Assembly: GCA_032718475.1 (NCBI GenBank)
Contig: JAUCBJ010001771.1
Location: 1-64,000 of the forward strand
Source: Nemertoderma westbladi
Lineage: Eukaryota > Animalia > Xenacoelomorpha
Direction of reading: 5' to 3'
DNA: 64,000 nt
Of the stretch, positions 2,737 to 49,302 are shown piece after piece; position 1 is the first letter of the stretch, and each line of letters opens with the position of its first letter. A program made the translations under genes and the position numbers. Under the pieces are notes generated by a model that was not told the origin of the DNA, did not search any database, and saw only the letters and a list, made by a program, of their open reading frames with translations.

Positions 2737-3612
2737 CCCGAATCATTAATACATTAGGCTGGTAGGCCCCTAATAAATAGGCCAGGCCTACAACCTGACA
2801 ACACAGCAAACAGCAGAACAGACAACAACATTAAAACATGCCTAACACAAAAGACAATTCAGCAATAGGCCTGTTGTTAGACTGGTGCTTAGATCGTGGC
2901 TTTTCAGCTTTTCCAGTTAACATTATTCCATTTTGTATAAAACAAGTAATGTGGTTGGAGAAAGCTGCTACTAAGCAGCAACCAATCACGTTAATCCTGT
3001 TTAACACAGAGTCAATGAGAATTGAATATTGCTAACATGAAAAAGTTCAGGTTACCATTGCATTATTCCATATCACAGGATCTGTATTCATTATTATCAC
3101 CCTCCTTGTCTGTTTCATTATACAAGTTATACCGAAAGCAGTCAGGCGTCAGGCAGAACAGAGGTACAGCAAATCAAATTATTAAGAATTGATAAGCATC
3201 CGTTGTTGTTAGCCTGTTACGTTAACGTTACACCTTAGTACTTAGGCTGTTTCTGTTAGGCTTAGGCAAGGCACTACAGCACTACTTAGAACTTACAATA
3301 GTTGATAGTACGATACATCAGCGTCATCAGCTACCTATGTCCTCCGGCTGTCCGGCGTCCGGTGCCGACCTCCGGCTGATAGGCCTTCATATAATTTATT
3401 CCATAAGATCAGAATATAGGCTTACACAACACATACAATTTTCAACACACACAACCAGACAACACAACCGCACAATTTTCAACAAATACTACATACTACA
3501 GTACTATTAAATACAGAAATACCACTCCCAGACGCCAGACGCCAGACTCCTGGCAGCCTCTGAGCCTGGGTGGGGTGTCATCGTTGCTCCTGCTCGTGTC
3601 AGGCAGTCAGGG

Positions 3613-4785
3613 TGTAAAGGCTTTTGCGGATCTAGCTAGTCATTTTCCCCGCAAAGTACTCTGTAGGTGTTTTAGCGGACATAAAAAGCCGTTTTCTTAC
3701 TGTGTAGGTGTTTTAGTGGACATAAAAAGCCATTTTTTCTGTATGTGTACTTTAGCGGACATAACAAGCCATTTTATGCCGCAATGCGCCAAAATACTCT
3801 TAATACAGTGTAGTTCAGATGACGACATCTATCAGCTGATATGTCGATGTGGAGCTTTTTGGCTTTCTTTGTTCGGCTCCACTCGACCAATCAGAGCGAT
3901 TTTCATTTTATCTTGCACAGAAGCCTACAGAAGATCACGCAATGCATTATGATCTTTGTTTACCTTTTTTCCTGAGCCCAGAACATCGGCTTTGGAATTA
4001 TTCTGTGTTTCAGACTTTAGCAAAACATTAGAACGGCTTTGATTATAGAAACGTATAACTGTTATCTACCACCTATCATATCATAACTATATGTACCTTT
4101 CACCGCATTATTTTACTGCTATTTACTGTCGGTTATTAATTGTTATCAGTGATGGAATGTTGTTATATTTGGAGAATATCGATAAATAACCATAAAACCC
4201 CAATCTTCTTGATATACTGAAGGTTAGAGACCGGTTACATATAGCAATTGCGACTTACATTATAGTGGTTTTGGAGTGAATTGAATGCTATTTCATAGAC
4301 CCTACATGTGTCAGTTGCTGTTCTCCTTATATATGATCAAATTTAGTGAAGGTCGGCAGATCAGTGTGCAGTAGTGTGCGGTAGTGTGCATGAATGTGAT
4401 AGATAACAAAGCATTTCCTAAAGAATGCGCTTTATACGAAAATCATTAGCCATCCCGTTGCGTTTAGTGTAAGTCATAACTCTGTTTACATACTTAGAGC
4501 ACCACGTCCTAAAGGAACTGTTAATATTTCCCGAAAGTGAATAATATTTGTCAGAGATTATATATTAACGATCAATCGAATAGTAAAGTAAGTCTACACC
4601 GCAATAAGGTCAGAGCATCCGAATCCAGTCTCCCTTAACCGTGGGTGAATGGTCGCGCATAGGCTGGCTTCGGCTAATGTAGCTTTATGTGTATCAAATA
4701 CTTGTTATAGGCTAAAGTCGATTTATAACCTAGAAGACACCTAAATTTGGCAGGTTAAACTGCTAAAGGTCTAAAAGCGCGAACA
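3613..4785 (+). repeat. E1 5' LTR (1173 bp)
   Basis: Matches 17953-18885 over ~930 nt. The right end (...AAAAGCGCGAACA) is placed by homology with the TSD-defined end of the E2 LTR. U3 contains three ~40-nt tandem units (TGTAGGTGTTTTAGCGGACATAAAAAGCC..., 3662-3775). Confidence 0.9.
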
Positions 4786-4798
4786 ATAACAGTTATAC
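4786..4798 (+). promoter_or_regulatory. Putative non-tRNA primer-binding site of E1, complementary to LTR 4053-4065
   Basis: ATAACAGTTATAC directly follows the LTR-terminal CA and is the exact reverse complement of GTATAACTGTTAT at 4053-4065. No TGG-starting tRNA PBS is present. Confidence 0.55.
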
Positions 4799-5824
4799 TT
4801 TCTTTATTGCAACGTAGGCAATAAAGGCAAAAGTACCGGTCGACCGGTAACCAGTAGGCCTAACTACCTAACCACCCGAACCAGTACTTGCAGCAGTACA
4901 GGTAGGCCTACATTAGTATTATTCGATTTTGATAATTATATACCGGTAGGTCTTGATATTTAATCAGGGACTGCAGCCCTGGTTTTTTATTGAGATTTTA
5001 CTTATTTCTGTCAGTTTTATTTACCTGTAAGTTAATATTGAGCAGAAGGCGTGTAAGCCTGCTCAGATTGTACAGATAATTTGTAGGCTGGACTGTTGTC
5101 TGACTGTTGTTAAGTCTGAAGAGATTGCAGTGTGTGCAGAGTGTATGTCCGATAAAGTACTAGTTAGGAACGTGGGGGCATCCAGTGCTGTAAGGTAAAT
5201 CCCCCCCCCCCCCCCCCCCGAAAGAATAAGTCGTACTACTCGGTTAGAACGCATACTAACTAACCATTTCGGAGTCTGCATATACTGTAGTTTATTTAGG
5301 CTTGATAGTAGTCTGCCAGCGTTTGGTCTGTATTTTGTTTGTGTAGTCTGTACGGGTAGCGTAATATTTATTATTCAGAGTTTATGCGATTATTCGCAAC
5401 ATTTACAACCCCAAGTTTATTCCTACAGTAATTGTGCTTGTTATACATACCATTATAGTTAAATTAACCCCGGTACTACATCAGGGCTGTTTGGCGTAGG
5501 TAAAGACTAGTGATTCTATGCTCTGGTCACTCCGGCAGATACCGTGGTTCTTTTAGCTGTACAAGTATTTTTAACTGCTGGTTATTTGTTGTATAAGTAC
5601 TTGTACCTAATTTAGGGTTTAGTGTACAGTGCTTTCCAAAGGTAATTAGTGTGTAGGCAGTATATTTGTGTTGTAAAGTGGTTAATAGGCACGTTAGCTA
5701 TGGTAGGCTGCGGTAATTAACTTCTAGGTAGGAACACTCCATAACACTCCTAACGTAGTACTTATAGCGCTACGGCTATAAGTCGTCAGACGGTGGTATA
5801 TTCAGTTATTCTAAAATAATTGAC

Positions 5825-6085
5825 GTACCGGTATTTACGATAGGCTTATTATATTTATTTCTATAAATTTGGGCTGAAAATATATACCGGTATTCTGTAA
5901 TTAATTCTAGTCTATAATTATACTTATGTATACACTATAAGTGTAAGCTGTATACCGGTATTCACGTTAGGCTTATTATATATCTATATATTTGCGCTGA
6001 TATTATATACCGGTATTCTGTGACGAACCCTAATATTCGATCCGTAATAATACTTATATATACTATAAATGTATACCGGTATTCT
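5825..6085 (+). repeat. Degenerate tandem repeat with five TACCGGTA palindromes in the E1 5' leader
   Basis: TACCGGTA recurs every ~55-70 nt in two alternating unit types. The same array is present in E2 at ~55128-55375. Confidence 0.75.
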
Positions 6086-6219
6086 AATATATTGTATATC
6101 TATCACGTTACACAGAGTAACGATATCGGTAATTAATTACTAGGCTAACAGTGATACTGAATTATTAGACTTGCTTTAACTGTAATTATAGCAGTAGGCA
6201 TTCAACTGTACAAACAAAC

Positions 6220-9200
6220 ATGTCTGACACAAAGCAAAACCTGTCAGACAGTCTCCTAGATACAACCATCTGTGATCCAGATAGGAGTGTGGAACGTTTG
6301 AGACCGAAGTTCAACTCACCTCCTACTGTAAGAAAGGTCATCCCTCCAGTAGTAGTATCAGACCCTAGGCTAGTCAAACACCGTAGGTCTATCATAGGCA
6401 CTCGGGCTCAAGTCAAGCGGGACCAAGAAGCAGCTATTAAACAGCAGCAACACTCGAGCCGAGAACTTATTTCTCAGCAGCCCGATAGCTCCAGTAGTTC
6501 GGATACTGTAGAGCTGACACCCGAGCGCGGAGCAAAGATGGCAGATGCTGTTTATTCGGATCCCCTTCTCATCCTTCCTGCAGCCATACTCACTAGGGTA
6601 TTGATTGCGGTGGAGGAACACCAAATCGATTGGGCGAGAAGTAAGCGATCGACCAAGGACAGTTATGCTGGATACACAAGGGAGGAACTGAAGTCTATTG
6701 TCAAGTCGCAATGGAACTTCCCCGGACCCGGACTCCCGTTTAACTTATCGGAAGCTGCCTGGGAGGACTTACACAGGATGGGAGTGACAAAAGACACTAG
6801 TGATCCAGCTGTGTGGAAGAGGTCGGCAGCAGGATATGTACAGGGATTCTTCAGCTCTTTGGAACGATTAGAAGAACAACTGTTTCGACAACCCCAAGGA
6901 CCTCAAGAGCAGGGAGAGCTGCTTTATCAAGTTAGAGAAAGAATTCTAAGAATCAGACTAATCCTATCGGCCTTTGAGGAAGCTTCGAAAAGAAGACAAG
7001 ACACGTCGTTGCAAGTTGCCATAAAGACTTGGTTCCAGCGGGTGAGTCTCAAGGTTCAAGGAACGGCCCAGTGGAAATTTCAGCTGGCTGAGCGCTCAAC
7101 CCACGGAGAATCAACAGACGCTACCTTTTCTCAAGTGGAAAGCGAAGCGACAGCAGAGAAACCGCAGAAGAAGGACGCTATAGACATCTATCTGTCAGAC
7201 TATCAACGATTTCTAGGTGATGAAGAGTTGAGGAGAAGGCTGGCTGGACTTCGTCCTAATAGTGAAGGAGCCAAGTTTGTGTTGGACGCAATAGATGCGG
7301 AAATGTTAGCTGCGAACCAAGCTAAATTTGATGAAAGCATCCGCATCGCTAGGGTTCAAGAAGAACAAGTGAAGAAAAAACGTATAGAAGATAGAAAGAC
7401 AGCAGCAGCGGCAGCGGCAGAGGCAGAAGCGGAAAGAAAGGCAGTCGAAGTGGAAAGAAAAGCGGCCGAAGTGGAAAGAAAGGCGGCAGTGGCAGCGGCA
7501 GCGGCAGAAGCGGAAAGAAAGGCGGTCGAAGTGGAAAGAAAAGCGGCCGAAGTGGAAAGAAAAGCGGCAGTGGCAGAAGCAGAACGGAGGGCATCTGAAG
7601 AGACAACACAACTAGAGTTGGAAAATCTTCAAGAGAAGCAAGACAACTTCAATAAACAGTTAACAGCTAGTCAAATGCAGATGATGAGTCGATCTACTCC
7701 CAAAAGACAGGGATTTACATCATCTGATGAAGGCGATACCACCGATCCTGAAGGCGGAGGAAATAGATCTCGTTCCAACAGACGTAGAAGAATGCCTCAC
7801 CGTCAGAAATTGCCTGATTTGCCCCCAGCTGTGAGAAGGCAACTAGCTAGCACATACTTAGGTAGTACAGAACCCACAGACTAAATTATTAGATTAGAAA
7901 GACTCCCTACTATAGTAGATAAGCCTGAAATAAATTCCCTTTGCACAGCACTAAACTACCTGTGCCCAGCAGAACAACCCCTGAGACAGTTCCTGTCCTG
8001 GACTCCGAGCAAAATATCAATGATTTGTCGCCCGTTGTCCCTCGTCCACCCGCTACTATGTTGGCGGCTCCCGCTTCGGCGGTAGAGTGGGTGGATGAGG
8101 GACGACGGGAGATGGGTCTCCTGCTCGGGCAGCTGAGGGAACACTGTTTGTGCTCCTCTCAGCAGGTCCGAGAGATGGAAGGGACTGTTCAGCAGTTAAA
8201 GGGAACAGTCAGAGAGGGTAGGTTAGAGTTGCAAGAAGTGCAGCAGAGTATCGCGTTAGAACGCGATAAATTAGTAAATACACAAAAGGGTATACCACCA
8301 CCCCCTGTAACAATGTGTCAACCTGTTAGGTCTGAAGTATTTCATGCGCAAGGTGTGGAGCCTACACGCATCTATACTGCTAGTGAAGTAGAAACTCCCA
8401 TAGTAAACCCTATTAAGGGTAATTATCAACCTGTTGACAATGATATTCCATATAGACCTGATCATAATCCGAGAAATTTATATACCGATAGCTCGATATT
8501 AAATAACACGATGGCCCAAGAAAGTTTTACACGTCAAATGGCTAGAACCGAAGCCCGTCAAGCGGTAAAGGTGGGAGAGATTGTCAAGTTCAATGGAGAT
8601 GAGATGAAATGGTTACCTTTTAATGAATATTACAAAGATAACATACAGAACTCTGTGCTATCTAACAGAGAGAAACTTAGATTCCTCATCGAGTGCTTGG
8701 AAGGATCTCCCAAGTTAATGGCGTTAAAGTTTATTGGACATCCAGATGGATTAAGACAAGTTTGGGATACACTAAACATCAGGTACGGTAATAGGAATAA
8801 CATAGCTAGGTATTTGTATGCAAAATTGGTAGCGCCCCGAAAGTTCATTAGCAGCGGGATTATAGAGTTTTCCGATGAGATTCAGGAGATCTGTAGACAA
8901 TTAGATTGGCTAGGTAAGTCTCATGAATATCAGAGTTCTATGGTTATTGGAGCCGTGGCCTCTACTTTACCAAAGGTTGGAGTAGGTACGCGCTGGGACA
9001 AGAAAGTCTTATATATGATGGAACAACAACGAAGAGACCCTACCATGGCTAATCTCATGTCATTCTTAGATGGAGAGGTAAAATTACAGCTCCTAAAGCA
9101 GTCCAGAGAGAAGACACCGGAAAATAAGGTAAGTGAGAAACCCATTTCTAGGAGAAAGGTAACACCAGTGTGTTATACAGACGATGGCGAAAGCCAGGCT

Positions 9201-12200
9201 TCTCAAGAAGAGGACAGCGGGAAAGACACTGAAAGATCTTACTATGTCAACAAAGCGTCTAAAGACGTAAGTAAATTTAAGTCTCGAACCCATGACAGGA
9301 GAGAACAGGTAAGAAAAATTCCTCCTACGTCTCCTAATAGAGTTCACAGAAGAAAGCCCGAGGAAAGAACGAGAGTGCACAACGTTACCCAAGGTAAGGT
9401 GAGTAACATAAAACCGAAATGTGTACTGTGCGACGGGCCCCACCGTTTGTGTGTGTGATGAATTTCTAAAGAAATCACTAAAGGATAGACGTGAAGTTAT
9501 GTGGGATAAGCGGTTGTGTTATAATTGCCTCAGACAAGGACACCAACGGCGAACCTGTTACTCCGACGCAAGGTGTGCAAAATGTGGCGCGAAACATCAT
9601 ATCTTGTTGCACACTGAATTCGAAAGAAACAGCCCGAGTCAGGTAAGTGAGTCCGAACTACATGTCCAATTCAGTGATGTGAACGACACTGATCAAAGTT
9701 CTGAGATGGAAGGATTCTATACGGATGAATTCTCCGACGAAAATGAATCCTGTTACCTAATAAATACTGCAGTGTATTGAGCACTTACGTATGAGAAGGA
9801 AACCGACAGTGAGCTCCCCCCAACTGCTCCTGACCGACAACCATCTTGGAAAGCACCAACTTCCAATGTAGGAATCCGAGAATTTCCCGTAGTGCAGTTG
9901 AGAGTCCACGGGCCTAAAAAGAGTTATATAGTGAACGCCCTCCTTGACTTCGGCAGCACAGGAACATTCATCGACAAAGAACAAAGACATCTTTGCTGGA
10001 CAACCCAAGCTCCGAACTAAGTTAAATATGTCAGGAATTATGCAGGTTTGGAAATCTACAGTAATTGCAGATTACTATGTAGGTACGTTGTCCACCCCTC
10101 AGGATGAACTAGGAGAACACAGTATAAGGTCAGTAAAAATGGTGGCGATAAAGAACTTCGCTACTAGCCAAGTGGAACCTTATAACTGGGATGAAGACGA
10201 TTTCACCCAGCAGCATAAGATACCTAGATTCAATACAGACTACCCTGGAGTGCAAATACTCATCGGTCAAAATGCGCATGAGGCGCTTGAGACATTGGAG
10301 AAACGGCCTACTCGACCGCAACCACTACAAACCTATGCGGGGAGAACTAGAGTAGGTTGGTACTTTACTGGCCCTTCCCGTAGAACTCTCATGGAAAGGT
10401 TACCCAAAACCAACTTTGCAAAACCAAGTGAACCTATGTCACCTCATTCATCCAGCGGGACAAGTCGATTACAACGACGAACTGAATGAAGTGATAGATC
10501 GTTACAACGCGAAAACTTGCGATGAACACGCCGTACGATTCTTTACTCAAGAGGCTGTAGAGCCCAATTCCTACGATAAGGCCCTATCGGTAGAAGAAGA
10601 AAGAGCCAACCAGATACAGGAAACGACTACACATTTTCTTAAAGATCAAGGTAGATATGAGATTGGTTTGCCTTTCCGACGGCGAGAACCCAATTTTATA
10701 AACAACCGACCCTTGGCGGAGAAGAGAATTGCGCAACTACATCGACGCCTTACGGCAAATGCTGCAGCTAAGGAGATGTACAAGACCCAGCTGAAGAAAT
10801 TCATTGACAAGGGATATGCGGAGCGAGTACCGGAAGGAACACCCATAACTGAGAGAACGTACTATTTAACACATCATTACGTTCCCAAATCCGGTAAACC
10901 CAACGAAGTCCGGGTAGTATTTGACGGCTCCGCCCTCTACATGGGCCAATCCCTTAACTCCGAGTTGTCCAGGACCCAACTTACTACAATCCTTGATGAC
11001 AACCGGGACGCCTTCTCCAAAGAGGTTATCGACAACATCAAACGGGATATATACATGGACGACAATTTAAAGTCCCTCCCATCGGTAGAAGAAGCCATTG
11101 ATGTCGCCAAAGGAACAGTAGAGTGTTTGAAAAGAGGTGGATTTCGATTAACTAAATTCACCAGTAACTCCCGTGAATTTCTGGAATCGATCCCGGTAGA
11201 AGACCGAGGAGTTAAAGATCTAGACCTTATCAAGGACGATCTTCCAGAAACCAAGACGCTTGGTTTGAAATGGGACACGGAGAGAGATATCCTATTTTTC
11301 CAGCTAAAACAGTGAGATAATCCAGTTCGGACTAAACGGATTTGTCTAAGTATCCTGAGCACTTATTTCGATCCATTAGGATTTATTAGCCCAGTTATAT
11401 TGATTGCTCGGAGTTTAGTACAACAAATGTGGCTCAAAAATCACTCATGGGATGATCCACTTAAGGGAGAACTATTAAAGAAATGGATGAAATGGGAAGA
11501 TTCTCTACCATCCATCGAGAACTTTATAATTTCCCGTTCATATTTTGGTCATATTCTCCCCACGTATTCCTATCAACTCCATGTGTTTGGAGACGCCAGC
11601 GATATGGGAATAGGTATAGTAGCCTACCTGAGAGTTGAAACTCCGGATGGAATCAAGGTCGCCTTGGTTACCTCTAAGGCCTTGATAAACAACAAGTTGA
11701 AAGTTCCTCGAGCGGAGTTAAAGGCGGCTCTATACGCTACAGCCATCAGCCGGAATGTAACAGAACAGATTGACTATCCACTGGAGAAAACTGTCTATTG
11801 GACCGATGCTTTACTCGTGTTGGAGTATATAACCAATGAAGTCTGTCAGTTCAGCATCTTCTTTACCAACAGAGTAGCCATTATACTTAGTCGCACGAAG
11901 ATAGATCAATGGAGACATTGCCCTGGGACGATTAATCCAGCCGACATCGCCTCCAGAGGAGCAACTCCACAAGAACTGATAGATACTCCAGACTGGTTAG
12001 GTGGACCCGACTTCCTAAGCAAGGAAGAGGATGAATGGCCTCCTCATCTTACTACGGCAGAGATTAGACAAGCCAAGGGAGCGGAGAAAGTCAAACCTAA
12101 AACCCGAGCGAGTAAATCGAAGTTATTTAAACCCGTGATAGATCTGTCTGTACTACACACTTCTGGAGACGACGCTTTGGATCCAAAAACCCCAGCCACA

Positions 12201-13937
12201 AATAAGTCTGTTGTGGAAATCAGAGAGAGAGATTGGAAATCTGGAACACCAGACGTCTCGCAAGGACTCTCACCTCTCCTGCAGAGAGCGATACATCACT
12301 ATAGTTCCTGGAATCGGCTCTGTAAGGCCGTTACATATTTAAAGCGATGTTTTCATCATCACTACGCCAGGACAAAGACCGCTAGTGATACCGCTCCACT
12401 GACATCTGCTCGGGTCCATGTTGTTAAAGATCTTCCCAAATACAAGACATCGGACAGATTTCTGAAGGAGAGAATCAGTTACCAGGAGCATGAAGAAACA
12501 AATAAGCAGATACTGAGACTCCTGCAATGCTATGAGGATTCCGATAAGTATTTCCTGTTGTTAAGAAATCCACAGATGCGCTTAAGGGATCGTTTCTCTA
12601 GCACAATGATAGATGGGTTAATATGCATTGGAGGAAGACTAACTAATGCTCCATTATCCTTTGACACTAAGTTTCCCATACTCATTAGAAATCTTGAAAT
12701 ACAAATCAAGATGATTGTAGATGTTCACAGTAAGCTTTATCATGCTGGTAGAGAACGAGTTCTTAGCGAAATTCGAACTCGCTATTATTTTCATAAACAC
12801 CGTAGAGCTCTGAACCAAGTTCTTAGGAACTGCATACCCTGTAGGAAAGCATTCAGTAGGCCTTTAACACAGCGAGAGGCAGAATTACCTAGGGAACGAG
12901 TAAGCTTCTATGAACCACCCTTCACAAATACCGGTGTGGATTTATTTGGCCCTATTGAAGTATATCGTGCTAGGACTATAGTCAAGAGATGGTGTGTCAT
13001 CTTTGTCTGTATGACTTGTAGAGTTATCCATCTCGATATGGTGAACGATTTATCTACCAATAGCTTCATATTGAGCTTACGCCGACAGATCGCTCGCTTT
13101 GGAACTAGTAACACGATGAGATCTGATAAGGGAACGAACTTCATTGGTGCCAACAATGAAATCAAGGCTTACGTCAAAGACTGGAACCAAAGACAGGTGG
13201 ACGATCAGCTAAGGGTAACAGCGTCTAGCTGGACCTTCAACGCTGCCGATGCCCCTTGGTGGGGAGGAAGTTGGGAGAGATTAATCAGGAGCTTTATATT
13301 ATAATTTCACTTTATAGTGCCGTGCCGCGCGTATCTCACCGACGAACTTTTGCGGACGTTAATGGAGGAAATCGCCGCTTATCTCAACGAGAGACCGCTT
13401 ATGCCAGTCTCATAGAGTCCGAATTCCCTGGAAGCGCTAACACCCGCGCACTTCCTACTGAAGAAACCTGTAGCCATGCTCCCACGATCGGAAATCATGG
13501 ACGGAGACGAATACTGCCGGCAAACTTGGCAACTTATGCAGTTGTTATCCCATCGTTTCGCTGACCATTTCGAAAAACATTATCTGCCGACGCTACAACT
13601 TCGAACCAAGTGGTTTGCGCAACAAGAAAACGTCAGCGCCGGAGACATGGTCCTTATTGTGGAGTGAGATCTTCCAAGTAAGCGGTGGCAGACAGGTCAT
13701 ATCATCGAGACTCATATCTCAGATGATGGTTTGGTGCGATCGGTAGAACTCGTCGTCATGCGACGTAACTTTAAGAAACCAGGAATTGTCTTCGAGACGC
13801 AGCAGCTCAATCGTCCAGTTGGTCGTTTATGTTTACTGGAAAGAGACAGAGAACTCTCCGGAAACTATGGAAGGCAAGATACTCTTCCCACGACCACCTC
13901 CCTAATCCAACCAACATCCAGGGACTCCCCAACGTGA
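6220..13937 (+). pseudogene. E1 gag-pol polyprotein, disrupted by stops, frameshifts and an RT-core deletion
   Basis: Gag core KFNGDEMKWLPF (DUF1759-like). Knuckles CVLCDGPHRLCVC, CYNCLRQGHQRRTC, CAKCGAKHHILLH. Protease ALLDFGSTG (DSG in E2). RT VRVVFDGS...YMDD, lacking the segment between GPNLL and YMDD. RNase H LHVFGDAS...PRAELKAA...YWTD. Integrase H..H..CIPC, GVDLFGP, SDKGTNF, WERLIRS. C-terminal YLPTLQLRTKW (DUF5641-like). Confidence 0.93.
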
Positions 13938-15441
13938 CAACGTCTGGAGTGGGTGTGTGACTATATTATTTCATATATTTTTATTATTTTTATATTTATG
14001 TATGTATTATTATGTAATTTTATTATAATCGTTTTCTTTAATTTTATTTAGTAGAATGTTATTTTAGCGATTATCTAGTAGATTAGTGCAATATATATTA
14101 GTCTTATTACTTAATTACTTATATAATATATATTTAGTGCGACGGCGAGAAATAACTCTTTTTCTCTTTCCTTACTGTCCGTATCATATTATAAATACGT
14201 GACTACAGTAAGATGAAATGTCCGTACTTATTAAAGTACAATAAAGCTCCTACTATATTCAAGTATTATTGGTAAGTAGAGTATTAGGAATGCAAAATTC
14301 AGATCCTCGTGTCTTGGCTAAACCAAGCTCTGGGTAGACCTTGGAAACGACTTGCCTCTTCTCACTGACATTGCTTCTTGCAATATTGCTCTCATACCGT
14401 ATATTAAATAATACATATAGTAGCGTGATGTCCCTTTAACAGTAGCGTAAAACGCAAAATAAATCTGTTAAACCCTTTGACCATCTGTAATTCTAGTCGA
14501 TTAAGATATCGCGGCACCCACCGATATACTTGAAAGACAAAATTATAGAATCAGTGGTTAACGTCCCCAGGCATGTTCTGGAATAAACCGGTGCCCATCT
14601 TAAATATTAACTATTAATATTTATAAAATCTGTCAAATAAATACAATAGAGTAACTACTTACAAGTTAACTCTAGAAAATCTATAAATTAAAATCTGTAA
14701 AATTTTAGATCCTTTAAAATTCTAGTCTATTAAGATATCGTAGCACTTACTGATACTCTTAAAAAGACAAATTTCCTAGAATCAAGGATCCCAGTCCCCA
14801 GACATGTTCTGGAATAAAATTGTGTCTATTTTAATATTAAATAATAAAATTTACGGGAATAAATTTAAATTCATCTCTTTTAATGAATTTGATAAATTGT
14901 CATTTTTATACAATTTATAACATTCCCAAAATTCCATTAATTAATAGATCCTGGGAGCGGAGATTCACCCTATTAAGTGTATTAGTGTGCGAGAATCTCC
15001 AATATATAGTCAATAGCCGATAAAATTCATAAAATCATGTATAAAGGGGAATATTGACAATTAAAGAATTACTATTAAATAGCATCCCAGATCTGTATGC
15101 ATGAGAATTACCCTAATTCTACTACTAGCTTTCCATAATGCCACCATGGCAACAACCATGCTAGAATTAGAAGCGAGTTAAAAGAACAATAGAAAGCTTG
15201 CCCCATTGAATAGCATAGGGAATAAATAGCACTGCTAGTATCCAAGGATACATAATAATAACGTGGCATTCTGGAAGGCACTTGACTAACGGACAAATGG
15301 CCCGAATGTGTACAATTTGTGACAGTTGTGTGGAATTTGTGCGTTTATAGGTGAATGTTACTACTAAAGTGTGTTTACAGTAGCGAGTCGCAATTGTGAA
15401 AGTAGCCCTACCTCTGCAGTAAGAACCTGAAGTAAATCTTA

Positions 15442-15598
15442 GCCCTTGGGACGGACGGTGGAGTGACTCGCGCTGGTTATCGTTGTTGTTGTGTAGCTAC
15501 TACGTTGGCGAAAAACACAGCAACAACGGTACATCGGCGCTAAGGATCTTGCGCTGTCCGGGGGCCGTGAGGGGTAGGCAGCGACGCCCGCTAGCCTA
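15442..15598 (+). other. Conserved structured RNA element (long stem-loop plus second hairpin) upstream of E1 accessory ORF-A
   Basis: Nested helices GGACGGTG/CGCTGTCC, GCGCTGGT/ATCGGCGC and the 17-bp TATCGTTGTTGTTGTGT/ACACAGCAACAACGGTA, then a TAGGC-AGCG/CGCT-GCCTA hairpin. Pairing is largely preserved by substitutions in E2. Confidence 0.7.
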
Positions 15599-15640
15599 AT
15601 TATAAACTCATTATAATATTGATAAACTCATATAGCAGCT

Positions 15641-16018
15641 ATGACTGATTTGATAGAAGATGATCTTGGTATCAGGGAGCGATATACTCTACCTTTACAA
15701 GCGTTTGTTGATAGCTTGATACGCGGCGACGCTAGTCCAACTACTACGGAGGACGATGGTCGTTATATCGAACCGCTGATGTCCCAGGAGCAACTTAAGC
15801 GTGAATTGGACTATAGAAAATTAACCGCTCGCTATACGCATCGCAATGGTACGTATATGGACTTCTTAACTACTGGCCATCCTATCGACTTACACGATAC
15901 GGACGATGTAGACACCGAATGGGAAATGGTTTTATTTAAATATCATACCCAGCGGAGTCGGAACAATAAATCGAGAATAGAACACGATAATTCTATTCGA
16001 AACCGACTCGAAAGATAG
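15641..16018 (+). CDS. E1 accessory ORF-A, 125-aa protein of unknown function
   Basis: Intact ATG ORF inside the element. By manual count 111/125 residues are identical to the E2 copy (48861-49259), with visible synonymous changes. Confidence 0.75.
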   Translation: MTDLIEDDLGIRERYTLPLQAFVDSLIRGDASPTTTEDDGRYIEPLMSQEQLKRELDYRKLTARYTHRNGTYMDFLTTGHPIDLHDTDDVDTEWEMVLFKYHTQRSRNNKSRIEHDNSIRNRLER

Positions 16019-17026
16019 AATGTGGAAGAAGGCTTGTAAAGACAAGTGGAGGAGAACTACTAGAGAAAAGGCATACGTTAATGTCCAGGGTCCATGATGT
16101 GAATAGTTTTCCCCAGGGCACGGGTGCTCGCGGGCGGTCTCCTTCGGGAGGCTGTAATTTTCTCTTACTTCATGGTGTTCCTGTAATTATTGTGATCAGT
16201 GTCGCAATCAAAGAGCAAGAATGAATGATGACGTAACGGAAAACATGTCCATCGTGGTATCTTATAGATACTACCATATATCCTTCCTCCTCCTTACTAC
16301 TATTATCCCTCTATACATCGCTATTGAAGATACAACATACTTCGTCCCACCTTCTCTTCCCAACGTGCTTGGAGCTTTGGGAAACGATCGACCAATCATT
16401 GCCGTATTGTGGTATTAATCGTACCACCTCTTACTAAACCTCCCATCCCTTACTATTAATCTGGATGCTTATATTGGTGTCCGCACCTCCTGTCCATGTA
16501 CCATTCTGTTAGTATTTACAATATCAACTTCCATCCCTATTGTCGTCGATTAGATAATCAACCACCAATAATTTCCTTAAGTCCACGACCGTGATACAAG
16601 GACTGAAAGGACACGCAGATAGTCTGTGAACAACTGGTACCATTATGTGTCATAAATCTGGTTGTTCACCTCCCTTAATAATTGGGGATAAATTCATTTG
16701 GAGATAGTACTCGAATGATACATTCCCCTACTGAGATCGTATTTCTGAATATTTCAGAATGCGACATAGGTTTTCCCCTGCTCTCTACCATCAATGGCGG
16801 AAAACATATTAGGCATACAACAGGAACATGGAGAACATTCCATATCCTTTCGTAGATACTCAGCTGATTGCTCCCTGGGCAGAAGGCCGAGGTTTCTTCC
16901 GCACTATGTATGCCAATACACCCAGCGGTATCACTAAAGTACAACGAACCTCCATCGGACATCTTGCCTTTCAAGAATACGGATGGAATTTCAAGGTTGG
17001 AAATCCTATTAACTATCAACAAGTAT

Positions 17027-17875
17027 ATGGAGATCTATTGTGCGTATTGCAGACTCAATAACTTGCATATTTTCGCAGTCTGCCCCCAATTTATGACTCA
17101 ATGCCATCATTGTCAACTTAAAGGACATGCCAGTTTTGATTGCCCTTTTAACCGCGATCTGGAAAGCGTAGATGAAATGATTACCCTGCGCTACATCCGA
17201 GCTTGGGAAGCGAATGCGGATTTACATTGTGAGTCACGCCATCGCTATTAACCTGGACGCGCCTACGAAGGAGTTTATGCGTTCCATCCTTATCTATTCG
17301 CGTCTGTTGAACAAAAATCACGCACACCGAGTTACGAACTAATGAAGCGTGTTGGTGAGTGTATTTCAACCAAATTTGTTCGTAAATATCTCAGGAACAT
17401 TAATCCTAACGATATTAATTCCTATAACTTGATCAACTTCATCCGCCAAGACCCGGAGTATGGCGATGTATTCATCAACTCGCATCCAGAGTTACAGGAA
17501 GTGCATCGACGGCCCTACGAATATCGAGCCCAAGAACGCGGGTTGGAAAGAACCATTAAACCGAGGAAGTTTCTCACCACTCACGGTCCACCTACCGCTA
17601 TCGTTCAGATGACTCGTCAGGGACCAGTAGGAGCTGCTGTCCTAAAACGCGCTCTAAAAGCCGTTAGACCTCGCTCCACTGAGGTTGATATCGATCAACC
17701 AGGTACCTCGACCGGCGGATACACCGACCGTAATCCTAAACCTTCCGATGCAATTGTATTGCACCCTTCACCCAGGAGTTATAGCCCTCCTAGTAAAGTG
17801 GCTTGCCCCAAAGAGAAAAGGACTCTTGCTAGCCTCAAAAAACTGCGTAAACGCCGTCCGCGCAAGAAAGACTAA
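17027..17875 (+). pseudogene. E1 accessory ORF-B, ~282 aa with two CCHC-type motifs and a basic C-terminus; one premature stop at 17249-17251
   Basis: Track ORFs 16868-17251 and 17342-17875 are in the same frame, and the intervening TAA is TAT (Tyr) in E2. Motifs CAYCRLNNLHIFAVC and CHHCQLKGHASFDC. Ends KKLRKRRPRKKD. Confidence 0.8.
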
Positions 17876-17952
17876 CTGTTTAGAGTATTTTTATATTTTA
17901 GAAACTGTTTTTTTTATATTTTATAGAATTAAATCCCATTTTCTGGGAGCAG

Positions 17953-18885
17953 TGTAAAGGCTTTTGCGGATCTAGCTCGTCATTTTCCCCGCAAAGTAGT
18001 CTGTAGGTGTTTTAGCAGACATAAAAAGCCGTTTTCTTACTGTGTAGGTGTTTTAGTGGACATAAAAAGCCATTTTTCTGTATGTGTACTTTAGCGGACA
18101 TAACAAGCCATTTTATGCCGCAATGCGCCAAAATACTCTTAATACAGTGTAGTTCAGATGACGACATCTATCAGCTGATATGTCGATGTGGAGCTTTTTG
18201 GCTTTCTTTGTTCGGCTCACTCGACCAATCAGAGCGATTTTCATTTTATCTTGCATAGAAGCCTACGGAAGATCGCGCAATGCATTATGGTCTTTGTTTA
18301 CCTTTTTTCCTGAGCCCAGAACATCGGCTTTGGAATTATTCTGTGTTTCAGACTTTAGCAAAACATTAGAACGGCTTTGATTATAGAAACGTATAACTGT
18401 TATCTACCACCTATCATATCATAACTATACGTACCTTTCACCTTGGAGAATATCGATAAATAACCATAAAACCCCAATCTTCTTGATATACTGAAGGTTA
18501 GAGACCGGTTACATATAGCAATTGCGACTTACATTATAGTGGTTTTGGAGTGAATTGAATGCTATTTCATAGACCCTACATGTGTCAGTTGCTGTTCTCC
18601 TTATATATGATCAAATTTAGTGAAGGTCGGCAGATCAGTGTGCAGCAGTGTGCGGTAGTGTGCATGAATGTGATAGATAACAAAGCATTTCCTAAAGAAT
18701 GCGCTTTATACGAAAATCATTAGCCATCCCGTTGCGTTTAGTGTAAGTCATAACTCTGTTTACATACTTAGAGCGCCACGTCCTAAAGGAACTGTTAATA
18801 TTTCCCGAAAGTGAATAATATTTGTCAGAGATTATATATTAACGATCAATCGAATAGTACAGTAAGTCTACACCGCAATAAGGTC
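17953..18885 (+). repeat. E1 3' LTR, truncated
   Basis: Copy of 3613-4611 with about ten substitutions, two 1-nt deletions and a 64-nt deletion (equivalent to 4105-4168). The last ~174 nt are missing. Confidence 0.92.
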
Positions 18886-19028
18886 TCAGCTGATCAGATA
18901 TCTGCTTAATGCATGCAGTATTGCATGCAACAGTGTATCATTTGCATAGAGGTATACAGGTATAACCTACATCTGTTCAAGATAAATAAACACACATAAA
19001 CTGATAAATACTTATATAAACTTTATAC

Positions 19029-19921
19029 AACTAGAAAGCCAGCAAGCTGGCTTTAAACGAACCTGCCCCTCAAACCAGTACCCTGAGTGAGCGAAAATGA
19101 AGATACGAAAATTGCCATCAATCAACGATAGAAACACCAGCTGCTGGTACTCATGAGGGCCTAGTAAGCTACTACTATTTATTGAATGGATAGCCCAAAC
19201 TGCAGAGAAGTATATTACTTACTAAATTTATTACTATCTCACTCTATCCCAGACAGTAATCCAATATCAACTGTTAGTTTGTATAATGTATTATTACCCC
19301 GCCTGCTGAATAGCTCTTCCCAGTGAATCATGGGATGGGAGATGGGACTATCATTGTAAGCACTAGGCCGTTCAAATGTTTTATAGGTTGATGATAATGA
19401 ATGAGGAGGGACCCAACTAACACTACGTTTGTCTATGGACGCTCTACTTATAGCCAGCTTGCTGGCTTTTCTAGTTGAATCATATTATTCTGCAACCAAT
19501 AATTCACTCTTTTAGACGAATTAGTACGATTTTTGCTGGAATAACAAATTTTGGCGACGTTCTGTGTGAGATTGGCGATATTTGAAAAGATTCTGAGGCT
19601 CACATATGTTGCTCAGATGACTGAATATCTCAAATAAAAAAGTTGGTGCAAACTCGACGATTTGAAATCGGTGAAATTCGACTTTAAATTTTCAAAACCC
19701 CTATTTTTCAGTGACCCCGTGATCGAAACGCCACAAAAAATATAGTCTTGTGCGCAACCAAAATTTATGTAGAGTTTGTTATTAAAATTTTTGCGTACCT
19801 GCTTTAGTTTTTGAGATATTGGATGGTTATACATACACACACACACAACCACATCGTGTTTTTGAACGGCTCAACTCTTGACAAGAACTACCCTGACCTA
19901 TTAATAGGCAGGTTCGTTATA
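19029..19921 (-). mobile_element. Non-autonomous Helentron/HINE (DINE-1-like) rolling-circle element
   Basis: Sub-terminal inverted repeats AACGAACCTGCC (19056-19067) and GGCAGGTTCGTT (19907-19918). On the - strand there is a (TG)n microsatellite near the 5' end, and a 3' hairpin AAAGCCAGC-TT-GCTGGCTTT followed by CTAGT. Confidence 0.6.
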
Positions 19922-24562: not shown

Positions 24563-25960
24563 CTGTAACAATCTGTTGAAATGATTAAGATACCTTCCAT
24601 GTCCTTCACGCAGTATGTGAGATACTGAAACAATCCATTGAAACGTTTAAGAGACCTTCGTGCAGCATGTGGGGCACTGCTGACTGTAACAATCTGATGA
24701 AACGTTTAAGAGACCTTCGTGCAGCATGTTGGATACTGAAACAATCTGTTGAAACGTTTAAGAGACCTCTCGTGCAGCACATGCGATACTGTAACATTGT
24801 ATAACAATCTGATGAAACGTTTGAGAGACCTTCGCGAAGTATGTGAAATACTGAAACAATCTGTTAAAACGTTTGAGACCTTCGCGCAGCATGTGGAGAA
24901 CTGTAACATTGTGTAACAAGCTGTTGAAACGTTTAAGAGACCTTCGCGCAGCACGTGGCGTACTCCAACATTGTGTAACTAACTGTTGAAACGTTTAAGA
25001 GACTTTCACGGAGCACGTGGCTTGCTGTAACATTGTAACAAGCTGTTGGAAAGTTTAAGAGTCCTTCGCGCAGCACGTGGCGTACTGTAACATTGTTAAC
25101 AAGCTGTTGAAACATTTAATAGACCTATGTGCCAGCACATGGGGTACTGAAACAATCTGTTGAAACGTTTGAGACCTTTGCGCAGCATGTGGCGAACTGT
25201 AACAGTGTGTAACAAGCTGTTGAAACGTTTAAGAGACCTTTGCGCAGCACGTGGCGCAATGTAACATTGTGTAACAAGCTGTTCAAATGTTTAACAGATC
25301 TTCGCGCAGCATGTGGCTCACTGTAACATTGTGTAACAATCTGTTGAAACGTTTGAGAGACCTTCGCGCAGCACGTGGCGCACTGTAACATTGTGTAACA
25401 AGCTGTTCAAATGTTTAAGAGACCTTCGCGCAGCACGTGGCTTACTGTTACATTGTGTAACAATCTGTTGAAACGTTTGAGAGACCTTCGCGCAGCACGT
25501 GGCGCACTGTAACATTATGTAACAAGCTGTTCAAATCGCGCAGCACGTGGCTTACTGTAACATTGTGTAACAATCTGTTGAAACGTTTGAGAGACCTTCG
25601 CGCAGCACGTGGCGCACTGTAATATTGTGTAACAAGCTGTTCAAATGTTTAAGAGACCTTCGCGCAGCACGTGGCTTACTGTAACATTGTGTAACAATCT
25701 GTTGAAACGTTTGAGAGACCTTCGCGCAGCACGTGGCGCACTGTAACATTGTGTAACAACTAACAAGCTGTTGAAACGTTTAAGAGACCTTCGCGCAGCA
25801 CGTGGCGTACTCCAACATTGTGTAACAAACTGTTGAAACGTTTAAGATACCTTCGCGTTCGCGCAGTATGTGAGATACTAAAACAATCTGTTGAAACGGT
25901 TCAAAGGCCTTCGCGCAGCACATGAGACACTAAAACAATATATTGAAACGATTAAGAGGT
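24563..25960. repeat. Tandem satellite, 62-bp unit with 124-bp dimer structure and shorter ~50-bp edge variants
   Basis: Unit AACAATCTGTTGAAACGTTTGAGAGACCTTCGCGCAGCACGTGGCGCACTGTAACATTGTGT at 25335, 25397, 25459 and onward. Alternating A/B variants in the core. Confidence 0.95.
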
Positions 25961-37730: not shown

Positions 37731-38337
37731 ATTTATAAACACAAAAATATAGAAAACAATACATGAATGCAACAGATAATTGAAAAACTAATACAGCAGT
37801 ACAGTAATACCAGAAATAGATTCTCCATAATTTTTTACCCCAGACTGCCAGAATGTGCATGTTTATCATTCAAACTGGTTACTCAGTCTCTACTCTCTAG
37901 TAACAAAAACAACAAACAACATGGCCTTCGCTAGCGAAGTCTGGATTTACTGTGTGCCAGTGCAGTGCAGTCCTTGCTTCAGTAGTCCTTGCAGCCTTGA
38001 TTTGAACTTATCAAGGCTTCTAGTGCAGTAGTGCTGTGTAGTGCTGTAGTGGGCCAGGACTTGCAGTCTTGTATTGGAATACCGTAATATTGTAATACTG
38101 CATGCTGTACAGTACAGCTGCTGTTAATACAGTGATAGGCCTACCTATACTGCAGTACTGTATCTATCTGTCAGTCTGTCTGTTTACAGGTTATGTTACA
38201 TATACATGTTAATCTTCTGATCTTACTGATATAACCATATCCAAATATCGGACCGGCAGACCGGTATTCCTACTGCCCTACTCTACTGCACTACACTGCC
38301 TACCCAAACGCAAACCCAATCAACAATTGTTGTAACG

Positions 38338-41300
38338 ATGGATAGCAGAGGAGATTTTGAAGAAGTTGAAACAGCTGACGATAGAGAACTTTGCGAATGT
38401 CTCATTGTTTGGATACGAACTTTCTCTCCACCTAGTTCCTGCAACGAAGTCTCGGATCTTACAGACGGAATGGTTTTATGTTTTTGTCTCAACAAAATAG
38501 ACTCAAACTTTTTCGACGATATGTGGCAGTCGAGTCTGGCCCCGGAGACGTCTAATTGGCGATTGAAAGCTAGTAATTTGCGACGGATAGTCCAGGGTAT
38601 GCGCGATTATTACACATTCTACATCCATAAAGGGTTGACAGACTTTCCGTACCCGGACGTTGAGCGGATTGCGGAATTATCCGACATTAAGCATTGTGGC
38701 CGATTGCTGCAACTATTCCTCGGGTGCGCGATGTACTGCGACTACAAACAGGACTACATCGAACGGATACTCCACCTTGACGAACGTGTTCAGCACGTTG
38801 TAATGAACGCGATTCAGGATCTCATAGACATGGAGTTCGAAGTTGACGAGGGAGAGGACAGTAAGACGGACGATTCCTTGTCGGACTACCGTCTTAAACG
38901 CTCTCTGGAGGACTCGCAACGCCTGTCGTTGGAGAACCGTCAGCTGATTAATAAACTCCACGAGAGCGAATCCTTAAAGCAACTTATAGACGAGGAAAAA
39001 TCCCAACTGAAGTTGGAGAATCTTAAACTGAGGGGTGAAGATTCCGGGGCGGAATCGGTTTACCCCGGGGACACTCGGCAGTATCAGCAGCTCCACAGCA
39101 AAGCGGAGCAACTGCTAGCCGAGAACTACCGGGTGGAGGCATCGCGGGAGGATTTACTGATGAAGAACGAAGCTTACGAGACCTCCATAAAGGAACTACA
39201 GGCCAAGGTTGAAGAGTTTGAGGTCCTTGCCAAGCACAGTCAGGAGTTTAAGGACGAGTTGGATGTGTTACGGAACAACAGCGATAAGATGGCCAAGTAC
39301 GAGCGGGAAATAGATCAGTACAAGAAGAAACTGTCTGAGATGGCGGACACCCGCAAACAGGTCCGCCATTAAATATTATAAGTATAGTACAGTAATACGC
39401 CAATAGATCACAAATTCACGTGTTTTCTCCCAATTTTAGTGAAACAAAATCTAGCAGTAGTATCATTACAGTATCACTTTCAACTAATAAACTATGGCAG
39501 TTTGGCCATTCCCTCCCTCACTATATTTTTACGTAGCCTTTTGCTACTATCAGTCAGCCAGGCAGTATATCAACACATATTACACCAATCAATATTTATA
39601 TTATATAATATCGGTAATAGTAACGTGTATTTAATTATTTCTACTTCTCACAGATGCGGCAGCTGGAGGATAAGAATTCCGAGTACGTCCGTGTCAACGT
39701 GGAGTTGGAAGAGGAGTTAGGTCGGGCCCAGGTATACCGGGCGCAATGCGAGAGTTACAAGGTTCAACTACAGGACGCCCAATCTCGGATACTCGAGGAC
39801 AGTAAAGCTATAGATAAAGGCGAGTTCGAAGCAAAGAAACTACAGGTATGATGGTTTATTAACCTTTACTTTGTTCGCTCAAGTAAATAGAATAGGATAG
39901 GCCATATCAGTTTCCAATTTTTATTTTTTTAATTACAGTAAGTATAGAAGATATATGTATCATTTTGTATTTAATATTATATATTTTGATTTCTCTGATA
40001 TATCGCGATACTCTGCTTCCCAATTATTTACGAAGATGTCGAATCAATACAATAGGTAAAGTCATGATGATTGCGGGCCATCAGAATACCCATTTTTATA
40101 ATATATGACACATACTGGGTGGGATTTACTGCTATAATATCCCCTGTATTGTATTGTAAGGACTTAAGATGCTATCGGGTAATATTAACTGTAATTTATT
40201 GTTTTAGTTAAAATAACGTGTCATTGTAACCTGCTCCTTTCCCTTAATTGACTATTTAACATGTTAAATCGCTGAGACGAGAATTGTTTCAATAGACTAC
40301 CATCTTAATACTTTACTCACAGACACAAGTTATTTATTTGAGACACGACGGGTCGCTATTCAGGGTCAGCCTCTCCATAAATCTCGCACAATCGGCTCGT
40401 ACGTCCTCGTCTTTTATGAATCGTCTTCCAGCCCAGCCAACACAAAATCCCTCGGCCCGTCGACCAATAGGATGACGCCGGTCGTCCATTTACATAACCT
40501 GCGACTGAAGCTCATCACTTACATTGTTGATTATTCATTATATATTTCAGTGTTGGTTTTATTAATTTTACTATTTACTACACCTATTATACAGGGGCCA
40601 AAAGTCTCCCCCCCATATTAATAAATTGTTATATTTGTATTGGATTTTCAGGAGAAGATAAAGCATCTCAACGACATTGTTGATAAGTTAAGGAAGGATA
40701 ACGAAGACCTCAAAGACATCGTGGAGGATCTGGACGGTAACGACGCGAGTTACGACCGTCTCAACACGTCGGGACGGCCGATGTCGGCGTCGCCGATGTT
40801 GGAGCTGATACCGTCGGAAGTTCGGGAGCGGATCGTTAAACTCCAACACGAGAACGAGTCACTGCGCTCGCAACTCGCCAATCGGACGGGAGAACAGGTC
40901 GCGGTGCTGCAATGCGTCGCAGACGACGCGAGGGCGCGGGTTGAGGACCTGGAAGGGGAGCTGCGAGAGGCGAACCAGAAGGTAATCCGGCTGGAATCCG
41001 AACTCGAAGATTATAAAGTCGCGGCGAAGTCGACGAGCAGTGTGGACGAGTTGGAGAAGCGATGGAAGAAGCGGCATAACGACCTACAGGAGAGGAACAA
41101 CTGGTTGCAGACGGAGAACCAACGGCAGAACAAATCGGTGATCGCCTTGGATAAAAAGATTGTCTCGGCTAATGCGAGTATCGACGGACTCAATGAGCAG
41201 CTGGCCAAGAACGAACACGAGAAAGGCGTGATGGAAGAACGATACCGGAAGTACTTAGAGAAAGCGCGGAGCGTTATAAAGACGTTGGATCCGCGACACA

Positions 41301-41587
41301 ACCCGCAGATAGTTGGCGATCTAGAGAATCTCAGGTCGGCTAATCGCGAGATGGAACAGCGTATCAAACAGCTGGAGACAGAGAGGGAGCGACAGAAGGT
41401 AGCCAGGGAGTCCGAAGAGAAGCTAATAGTGTCCGCGTGGTACAACATGGGTATGCAGGTACACCGGAGGTCCGTGGAGGACAGACTGTCGGGTTTCTCA
41501 TTCCATCGGGTCCCCGGCTCCTCCAACGATCGATATTCATCCGCCAGCGGCCCGACTTCCCGATACAGAAGTTCCCATCCACCTTAA
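38338..41587 (+). CDS. HOOK: Hook-family microtubule/dynein cargo adaptor, ~716 aa; exons 38338-39360, 39654-39845, 40652-41587
   Basis: N-terminal Hook domain (DLTDG...NWRLKASNL...GRLLQLFLGCA...VQHVVMNAIQ), long coiled coil, C-terminal YLEKARSVIKTLDP and EEKLIVSAWYNMG. GT-AG phase-0 introns join the three ORF pieces in frame. Confidence 0.93.
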
Positions 41588-46551: not shown

Positions 46552-47733
46552 TGTTCGCGCTTTTGAAGACCTTTAGCAGTTTAACCTGCCAAAATTTATA
46601 TGTCTTTTAGTTAATTAACACACCTTTAGCATACGACAATATTTTATGCTAATAAACAAAACATTAGCCGAAGCCAGCCCATGCGCGATCATTCACCCGA
46701 TGGATCTACACCCGGGAGGCTGAATTCGGATGCTTAGATTTTATTATTGCAGTGTAAGGTTGCAGTGTAAACCTATTGTATTATTCGATAGATCACTAAT
46801 AATTAATTTCTGACAGATATTATTAACTTTCGGGAAATATTAACAGTTCCTTTAGGACGTGGCGCTCTATCTATTTAAACAGAGCTAGGACTTATACTAA
46901 ACGCAACGATAAGGCTTATGATTAAAGTATAAGTCGCATTCTTTAGGAAATGCTTTGTTACCAGTCACATCACACTCACAATCATGCACACTATTCTGCC
47001 GACCGTCAGTATATTTGATCACACATAAAGAGAACAGCAATTGAATCAGGTAGTGTCTACTAAATAACATTAGATTCAATACACACCACATTGATATAAA
47101 TCGCAATTGTTATATATAGCCTGTCTCTCTAACCTGTAGTGTATCAAGAAATTGGGAAATTTGGGTGATTTATCAATATTCTCCAAATGACAATATTTCA
47201 TCAACAAATCGATACAATTAATAACTGACGGCAAATAGCAGTACAAACAATATGATTAGTGCAGTTAAATTAAGTGAGGTAACACCGCCGGTAACAGTTA
47301 TACTTTCTATAATCTAAGCAGTTTTACTAGAGTTGTTCCAAAAGCCGGTGTTATGGCGAAAAATGGGAACACAACAACAGAAACATGTGACTACTACTCT
47401 ATACGAAGATACCAACTCCCTTATTCCACGAAGCTCCCGTTCAACACAGAGGATGAGCATAGAGATAGGAAATTCAGTTCAGTAGCGCTGGGATAGGTCG
47501 AAATCAACGCCTACGCAAATTCTATTGGCCGACACGGACAGCAAGGCTTAGGCAACCTCTCTAGGCTAGTTGGCCGATTAAACTGAGCCCAGATATCTCC
47601 GTACAGCACATCAGCCAATAAGCCGGTAGCTTGCACTATTTTAGTTATAAATCCCTTTGAGAGTATTCTAGCGACTGGGGGGGAACTGGCCAGCAAAGGC
47701 AAACGTATCAGTTATCCCACAAAAGCTTTTACA
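46552..47733 (-). repeat. E2 3' LTR
   Basis: Direct copy of 57154-58335 (offset 10602). Only two differences noticed by eye. Confidence 0.95.
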
Positions 47734-47811
47734 CCGCTCCCAGAAAATGGGATTTAAGTCTATAAAATATACAAAATCACAGTTTCTAAAATATAAAAAT
47801 ACTCTAAACAG

Positions 47812-48659: not shown

Positions 48660-48860
48660 CGACGGTTGCTCGTGGAAATAGGAACAGATATCGTTGGTGT
48701 CCATAGACGTAATATGGTCTCTCGATGCGCACAGCCGACAACGTTGTCGAGAAACATAATTGGCGTGGCGATATTCGTACGCAGTGAGACACTGTGGACC
48801 TTGATACCATTCTAGGATGTAATCGTTGTCGCTGTTCCGAGCGCGATAGGCTGAATCTCC

Positions 48861-49259: not shown

Positions 49260-49302
49260 ATCTGCTATCTGAGTTTATTAATATCAATATGAGTTAATAT
49301 TT

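Follow-up and report, generated by a model that had tools for sequence, protein, structure and literature searches.

Self-priming of reverse transcription is a known mechanism among LTR retrotransposons. In the available text of Neumann 2019 (PMC6317226), it is assigned to Tf1/sushi and Tcn1 among the gypsy elements and to TAR among the copia elements; Tf1 is the only element in which it was demonstrated, its gypsy relatives and one plant copia lineage being predicted cases. For Tf1, it has been shown that the mRNA begins with the primer and that cleavage follows it. According to the available part of bioRxiv 10.1101/2022.12.06.519325, Tf1 priming requires a central primer:PBS duplex and two further duplexes, in which PBS-adjacent sequence pairs with the LTR downstream of the primer. 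The available part of PMC5341516 describes Tf2 as switching between a productive upstream start and a non-productive downstream one, the latter used under repression. The preliminary description of the present locus took BEL/Pao elements to be tRNA-primed, and the ICTV profile of the Belpaoviridae agrees, giving an 18-nt PBS for tRNA-Arg or tRNA-Gly and calling replication poorly understood (PMC8742986). Self-priming in BEL/Pao is not reported in the available text of PMC5445492, PMC3601003, PMC4600332, PMC5443660 and PMC8220671, and a term look-up in the available text of de la Chaux and Wagner 2011, Copeland 2005 and Thomas-Bulle 2018 found no passage on PBS, tRNA or priming. No paper on BEL/Pao self-priming was found in a search of paper listings and of the main text of openly available articles; the occurrence of this known mechanism in BEL/Pao would be new as far as the literature was searched.

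The window (the whole 64,000-nt stretch of DNA that was analyzed) contains two related LTR elements, E1 on the + strand and E2 on the - strand, with the following features:

3613-4785, + strand: E1 5' LTR, 1173 nt, TGT...ACA, 3' end set by homology to both E2 LTRs
3979-3998, + strand: short block shared by E1 and E2, where agreement begins in an otherwise barely related U3; candidate promoter/start region
4053-4065, + strand: E1 candidate self-primer, exact complement of the E1 PBS
4067-4099, + strand: E1 hypervariable stretch directly 3' of the candidate primer, with variants from DNA runs
4786-4798, + strand: E1 PBS of non-tRNA type, adjoining the terminal CA of the 5' LTR
6169-13937, + strand: E1 gag-pol region with stops, frameshifts and an RT deletion; DUF1759, Peptidase_A17, integrase zinc finger
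17936-17952, + strand: E1 polypurine tract (PPT) region
17953-18885, + strand: E1 3' LTR, truncated; 64 nt missing (equivalent of 4105-4168)
57154-58335, - strand: E2 5' LTR, 1182 nt, 2 differences from the E2 3' LTR
57893-57904, - strand: E2 candidate self-primer
57142-57153, - strand: E2 PBS, 12 nt adjoining the 5' LTR
46552-47733, - strand: E2 3' LTR
58340-58336 and 46551-46547, - strand: E2 target-site duplication (TSD) GTAAC, 5 bp

Membership of E1 and E2 in BEL/Pao rests on their proteins. The Pfam scan returned DUF1759 (8e-12), Peptidase_A17 (6e-37) and Integrase_H2C2 (6e-8) in BEL/Pao order, PF05380 or PF17921 was present in 15/15 homologues, and RNase H D-E-D-D motifs were seen in the E1 ORF at 11316-13304. 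The TG..CA LTRs, PPT and 4-6 bp TSD of BEL/Pao elements were also found, the TSD being assessable in E2 only (the 3' end of E1 is truncated). The elements resemble the Belpaoviridae (Semotivirus) in their DUF1759 gag, Peptidase_A17, PR-RT-RH-IN order and triple Cys-His box, as well as in LTRs of about 1.2 kb, a 5-bp TSD and a PPT; they differ in lacking the 18-nt tRNA-Arg/Gly PBS (PMC8742986), and E1 spans more than 15 kb as against 4.2-10 kb for the family. The Tf1 group, in contrast, belongs to the Ty3/gypsy chromoviruses, and no chromodomain, the mark sought for the Tf1/sushi lineage, was matched in the 15 ORFs scanned. Two sub-threshold Rfam matches to plant miRNAs inside gag were judged to be due to chance.

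Both elements are defective. In E2, RT, RNase H and integrase are largely missing (51024-51324) although its LTRs differ at only 2/1182 sites, and E2 is a recently moved non-autonomous copy; its near-identical LTRs indicate recent movement with its cis signals in place. The E1 LTRs differ by 11 mismatches in 933 aligned nt, and the 64-nt gap of the 3' LTR was rejected as an intron, its edges not being GT-AG. The candidate primer site is kept in the E1 3' LTR (18391-18403) and is present in both LTRs of each element. Between integrase and PPT lies a region of ~4 kb (13937-17935; E2 47740-51000), 85-91% conserved in E2, with reading-frame fragments at 15626-16018 and 16868-17875 and no Pfam match for the piece scanned; it is a possible extra ORF region. 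A leader block of ~290 nt is tandemly duplicated in E2 (56303-56877; E1 counterpart 5079-5377), and the joint of this duplication also occurs in contigs from other copies. Elsewhere in the window, long unbroken frames hold the host genes DDRGK1 (1840-2742), HOOK (38230-41587) and Mre11 (61636-63438; an intron-less ORF with about 50% identity to mollusc proteins), which suggests an intron-poor animal genome, and repeats of about 62 nt form a tandem array at 24576-25957.

The complementarity that led to the proposal of self-priming was recovered with the same coordinates and letters as first described. In E1, positions 4786-4798 are the exact reverse complement of LTR 4053-4065 (13 nt, offset 0), and in E2, positions 57153-57142 (- strand) are the exact complement of LTR 57904-57893 (12 nt, offset 0). 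No TGG was found within 15 nt of the 5' LTR end of E1 or E2, in agreement with the reported absence of a TGG-starting PBS. When the LTRs were shuffled by dinucleotides, with PBS offsets of 0-5 allowed, matches of 13 and 12 nt were reached in 2/3000 (E1) and 4/3000 (E2) shuffles, respectively. Among other words of the window, 4/118,692 13-mers matched the E1 LTR and 15/118,702 12-mers matched that of E2, and the same match length was reached at 0/1455 (E1) and 1/1494 (E2) leader positions. The primer:PBS pairing was the longest GU-free helix between LTR and leader in E1 and was tied for the longest in E2. E1 and E2 are 78% identical over most of R-U5, and, as homologues, their matches count as one observation, not two. 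The core shared by PBS and LTR is an interrupted palindrome, ATAAC-A/T-GTTAT, so that the two sites are also near-direct repeats.

This arrangement is that of Tf1, Tf2, Tj1 and Tosmo, which likewise have no tRNA PBS and carry 11-13 nt past the 5' LTR that complement the own LTR. A published in silico definition of a self-primer (at least 10 bp, 0-5 nt from the LTR end; available text of PMC6317226) applies to both elements; Tcn1 (gypsy) and the plant copia elements TAR, Houba and Osr-1, predicted self-primers on the same definition in that text, differ from E1/E2 in superfamily and host. The fungal Copia element GalEa also lacks a tRNA PBS and has a palindromic word adjoining its LTR end, but it is described in the available text of PMC5445492 without the complementary LTR site that E1 and E2 possess. 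The U3 of sister families diverges until shortly before the primer in Tosmo (available part of bioRxiv 10.1101/2022.12.06.519325) and in E1/E2 alike: the partner site had been placed ~80 nt past the U3 divergence, and the shared block indeed starts about 75 nt upstream of it in E1. The R-U5 past the primer, 720-739 nt in E1/E2, is listed as a difference from the Tf1 group.

The base pair next to the LTR end, A-U in E1 and G-C in E2, had been read as a compensatory change. The change is real, one event at the helix edge; the weight given to it did not hold. The C of this pair in E2 is the point where the E1/E2 alignment ends, the 40 nt past it being 45% identical (shuffle level 42-50%), its G doubles as the first base of the TSD GTAAC, and the E1 primer is still able to pair with the E2 PBS via G-U. 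On its own, this single pair is weak evidence. The PBS of E2 opens with the same five bases as its TSD, an identity with a chance probability of about 1e-3; coincidence, local conversion and target choice aided by a PBS-derived overhang are its candidate causes. An 18-nt extension of the match over the TATA-like motif (E2 LTR against E1 PBS) was set aside, as it needs a bulged C at 4052 in E1, and deletion of this C was not among 12 of 40 indels listed from the DNA runs. When GT-AG joins were tested, no intron extended the PBS match in E1, and the only join in E2 (15 nt, with a weak donor and an AAG acceptor, in unshared U3) was rejected. On this sequence analysis, E1 and E2 represent the contiguous, intron-less form of the signature.

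The E1/E2 family is present at high copy in public DNA runs, and the region 4005-4130 was compared with 211, 165, 118 and 3 contigs of four of them (X1, X2, X3 and X5; X1 and X2 come from the same sample). No substitution at 1% or more was listed at 4045-4066 in 4/4 runs, and 26/27 listed variant rows fall at 4067-4099; contigs drop rare variants and cannot link both sites, and divergent copies or changed sites may not align. The summed depth in X1 fell about 30-fold, from 71,214 (4060-4064) to 2,496 (4070-4074). The agreement among copies thus ends one base past the 3' end of the proposed primer, the conserved block as a whole being 4005-4066 and thus wider than the primer alone.

The same comparison bears on the start of transcription. 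The preliminary description had named the word TATAGAAA at 4044 as a potential TATA box, which would place the start downstream of the primer. The substitution 4044 T>C accounts for 85, 83 and 80% of depth in X1, X2 and X3 and for 36% in X5, so that in three of four runs the word usually reads CATAGAAA (CATA); the TATA-like motif is broken in most of the depth of these three runs, and its role as a TATA box is disfavored. No canonical TATA was found upstream of the primer in E1 or E2. TATA-like words occur downstream of it, at +184 in E2 and +275 in E1, so a downstream start is possible, and the transcript start site is the main risk to the self-priming reading.

Related families were collected by a profile scan of metagenome contigs, which gave 398 BEL-like stretches, of which the best 80 were taken; 4 more came from genome contigs. 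In 12 loci (11 families), a second copy of the LTR served to fix its 3' end, the LTR ends of L062 and L069 being placed by eye and the 3' LTR region being used in place of an incomplete 5' copy in six loci. Only the LTR start was fixed in 7 further families, and 65 other loci were left out as sister copies or as having no usable 5' end. Within this sample, which is biased toward elements resembling E1, 16/18 BEL families with a usable 5' end carry their own PBS/LTR match of 10-16 nt, with differing letters; the match is contiguous, as in E1/E2, in 7 of the 16 and is best or only found across a GT-AG splice junction in 9. The PBS letters vary between families yet match the own LTR, so each PBS tracks its LTR, which amounts to covariation.

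Among the 11 end-fixed families, a contiguous match of 10-11 nt was found in three (L004/L006, L014 and L018) and a match of 10-16 nt, best or only across a GT..AG intron, in six (L022, L025, L041, L060, L062 and L069), with null values for these nine of 0-6 of 300 per element; L046 had no PBS/LTR match and L040 one of 9 nt only (23/300 null). The start-fixed families gave contiguous matches of 10-12 nt in L008, L029, L038 and L056 and spliced 11-nt matches in L031, L043 and L063, under scan settings widened after the L031 and L063 matches had been spotted by eye; the same widened scan on 98 coding windows yielded 1 match at 10 nt and 0 at 11. TGG followed the LTR only in L041, which also has a 14-nt junction match, and the PBS match of most relatives begins with GT, as in E2. 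An exact 21-nt LTR-end/PBS pattern gave 0 matches in metagenome contigs, and the viral contigs searched contained no relatives.

The locus L060 provides both forms of one LTR. Its 5' copy is without the 117-nt GT-AG intron found in the 3' copy (1-214 vs 6935-7265); with the intron the match is 10 nt long and without it 14 nt, the junction falling within the 14-mer that complements the PBS. The pattern, in a record that may be RNA or DNA, is as would be left by a transcript spliced at its 5' end only. The spliced 5' copy extends 79 nt upstream of the primer stretch, so that the transcript start proposed for E1 at 4053-4055 is best softened: the transcript may begin upstream. In these relatives, unlike Tf1, the primer spans a splice junction and probably lies inside the transcript. 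L040 and L043 have splice-junction matches with a common exon end and a paired A-U vs G-C change in primer and PBS, provided that the LTR of L040 is taken to end a few bases sooner.

A quick tree was built from 62 RH-IN proteins, leaving out 13 sister copies and frame-broken loci. It placed E1, on a long branch of 2.03, in a group of 56 rows that is separate from two insect proteins (SH-aLRT 95); the position of E1 within the tree is unsure. Contiguous and spliced labels needed 4 changes each and were not clearly clustered (222/500 and 36/500 shuffles). Four of the loci, L081-L084, are BEL/Pao elements located on short contigs from prokaryote MAGs and probably represent eukaryotic contamination. 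In L032 and L034, an entire BEL element is repeated exactly, head to tail, with common LTRs, which may be a tandem array or an assembly loop.

Folding of U5 plus leader without the primer gave z scores of -3.93 (E1) and -4.51 (E2), a stability reached in 0/20 shuffles each. In these unconstrained folds, the PBS is predicted to be mostly unpaired between duplexes in both elements; in a second folding set, the PBS was held open. The predicted elements of structure are:

4574-4585 with 4917-4928, + strand: E1 outer 12-bp LTR-leader helix, predicted, mean P 0.92-0.95
4601-4609 with 4802-4810, + strand: E1 PBS-adjacent duplex, predicted, weak (P 0.2); strong in E2
4653-4782, + strand (4653-4658 with 4777-4782): E1 stem-loop, predicted, U5-IR-like; also in E2
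4802-4928, + strand: E1 leader arms of the LTR-leader duplexes plus intervening hairpins, predicted
57346-57391, - strand: E2 LTR arms, three nested perfect helices of 12, 10 and 10 bp, predicted, P 0.96-0.99
57023-57138, - strand: E2 leader arms of the nested helices, predicted; the first starts 3 nt past the PBS

The LTR-leader duplex is predicted to begin 3 nt past the PBS in both copies, and with the PBS held open a stem was obtained whose closing pair lies 3 nt short of the LTR end (P 0.73 in E1, 0.6 in E2). The inner duplex of E2 is predicted to consist of a pair of perfect 10-bp helices (P 0.96-0.98); one of them, the middle of the three, joins an E2-only LTR duplication with E2-only leader letters. 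The PBS-adjacent helix on the 3' side was matched by 4/150 random words in E2 and 14/150 in E1; the 5'-side stem was not significant in the longest-helix test (93/150 and 142/150 null). Once 150-330 nt of leader are included, nested folding no longer yields the pairing of primer and PBS (P 0.00-0.05 at 330 nt). This would be expected if the helix formed a pseudoknot, a structure that the program cannot model, and is not proof of one. Modeling thus predicts pretzel-like LTR-leader duplexes around an open PBS in E1 and E2, possible counterparts of the flanking duplexes of the Tf1 pretzel. The pretzel was rejected as a clade-wide trait, a 3'-side helix at no more than 5/150 null being found in 1/10 relatives and a 5'-side one in 2/10.

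These data also allow other readings of the two sites to be weighed. The PBS might bind a host RNA (a tRNA half, an edited tRNA or a small RNA), the LTR match being structural or regulatory through PBS masking, packaging or dimerization; we consider this unlikely. In its favor, the PBS core CTGTTA presumably resembles the anticodon loop of tRNA-Asn. The near-palindromic PBS is also reminiscent of the conserved hairpin site of fungal GalEa (available text of PMC5445492), tRNA-Arg/Gly priming is given for the family by the ICTV (PMC8742986), and half-tRNA priming exists in Copia lineages (available text of PMC6317226). One host RNA, however, cannot fit all 16 families, whose widely varying PBS letters each match the own LTR, and in 9 families the match is to a splice junction. 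Moreover, the PBS self-dimer is weak (-6 to -7 kcal/mol vs -13 to -14 kcal/mol for primer:PBS), the Rfam scan of 3500-19200 gave no tRNA or snRNA family match, and no tRNA gene was detected in the window.

It is considerably less probable still that the sites are DNA-level repeats, either a short duplication or a near-palindromic word that binds protein or acts as promoter, with no role in RNA pairing and with priming by another route. As direct repeats, the E1 sites differ only at the central base, the LTR site lies within the conserved block 4005-4066, a possible promoter, and the double change between E1 and E2 is one edge pair. Yet the E2 sites each lose palindromy and stay mutually complementary, the sites of the relatives are non-palindromic, the position 0-5 nt from the LTR end recurs over families, and a match completed only by splicing cannot be a DNA repeat. 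A chance match or an assembly artefact, for example first PBS bases of E2 copied from the 3' flank, is the least probable of all and on the sequence comparisons already largely refuted. The AT-rich sequence and the identity of the E2 TSD with the first five PBS bases would favor it, against which stand p values of about 1e-3 to 1e-4, the independence of the E1 match from any flank, the presence of the site in both LTRs of each element, and the recurrence of the match in 16/18 relatives, mostly starting with GT as in E2.

The self-priming proposed in the preliminary description is the best reading in view of the conservation of the partner site with its sharp 3' boundary, the predicted duplexes and the 16/18 families: E1 and E2 likely prime minus-strand synthesis with a stretch of their own LTR RNA rather than a host tRNA. 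On the sequence evidence, the two are bona fide BEL/Pao elements that are most likely Tf1-like in priming and lie outside the Tf1/sushi lineage. By analogy with Tf1, the transcript would start at or upstream of about 4053, the predicted LTR-leader duplexes would keep the PBS open, and the RNA of 4053-4065 would anneal to 4786-4798. The RT/RNase H of the element would then cut at about 4065/4066, freeing a 3'-OH that faces the terminal CA. From this end, RT would copy U5-R as far as the cut before transferring to the 3' LTR. Many relatives would assemble the primer by splicing, the family in the window being the intron-less form, and the defective E1 and E2 would have borrowed enzymes in trans or provided them. 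If the elements do self-prime, 4053-4065 should be covered by a transcript, an RNA should end at about 4065/4066, and strong-stop DNA should carry these 13 ribonucleotides.

With less confidence, though still on balance, we favor a broader picture, in which a large, mostly non-insect branch of BEL/Pao abandoned tRNA priming. The primer, taken from the element's own RNA, would lie within the transcript, and in roughly half of the families it would arise when the host splices out an LTR intron, with intron-less families interspersed on the tree. Splicing of the 5' LTR would act as an on-switch for reverse transcription, and in E1 and E2 an extended scaffold of paired LTR and leader would keep the PBS open. 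If true, a self-primed BEL/Pao branch would extend the mechanism to all three LTR superfamilies and would bear on which of the two, self-priming or tRNA priming, is older, as asked in the available text of PMC3601003. It would also explain why PBS-based annotation misses such elements, and may imply that they have escaped control by tRNA fragments.
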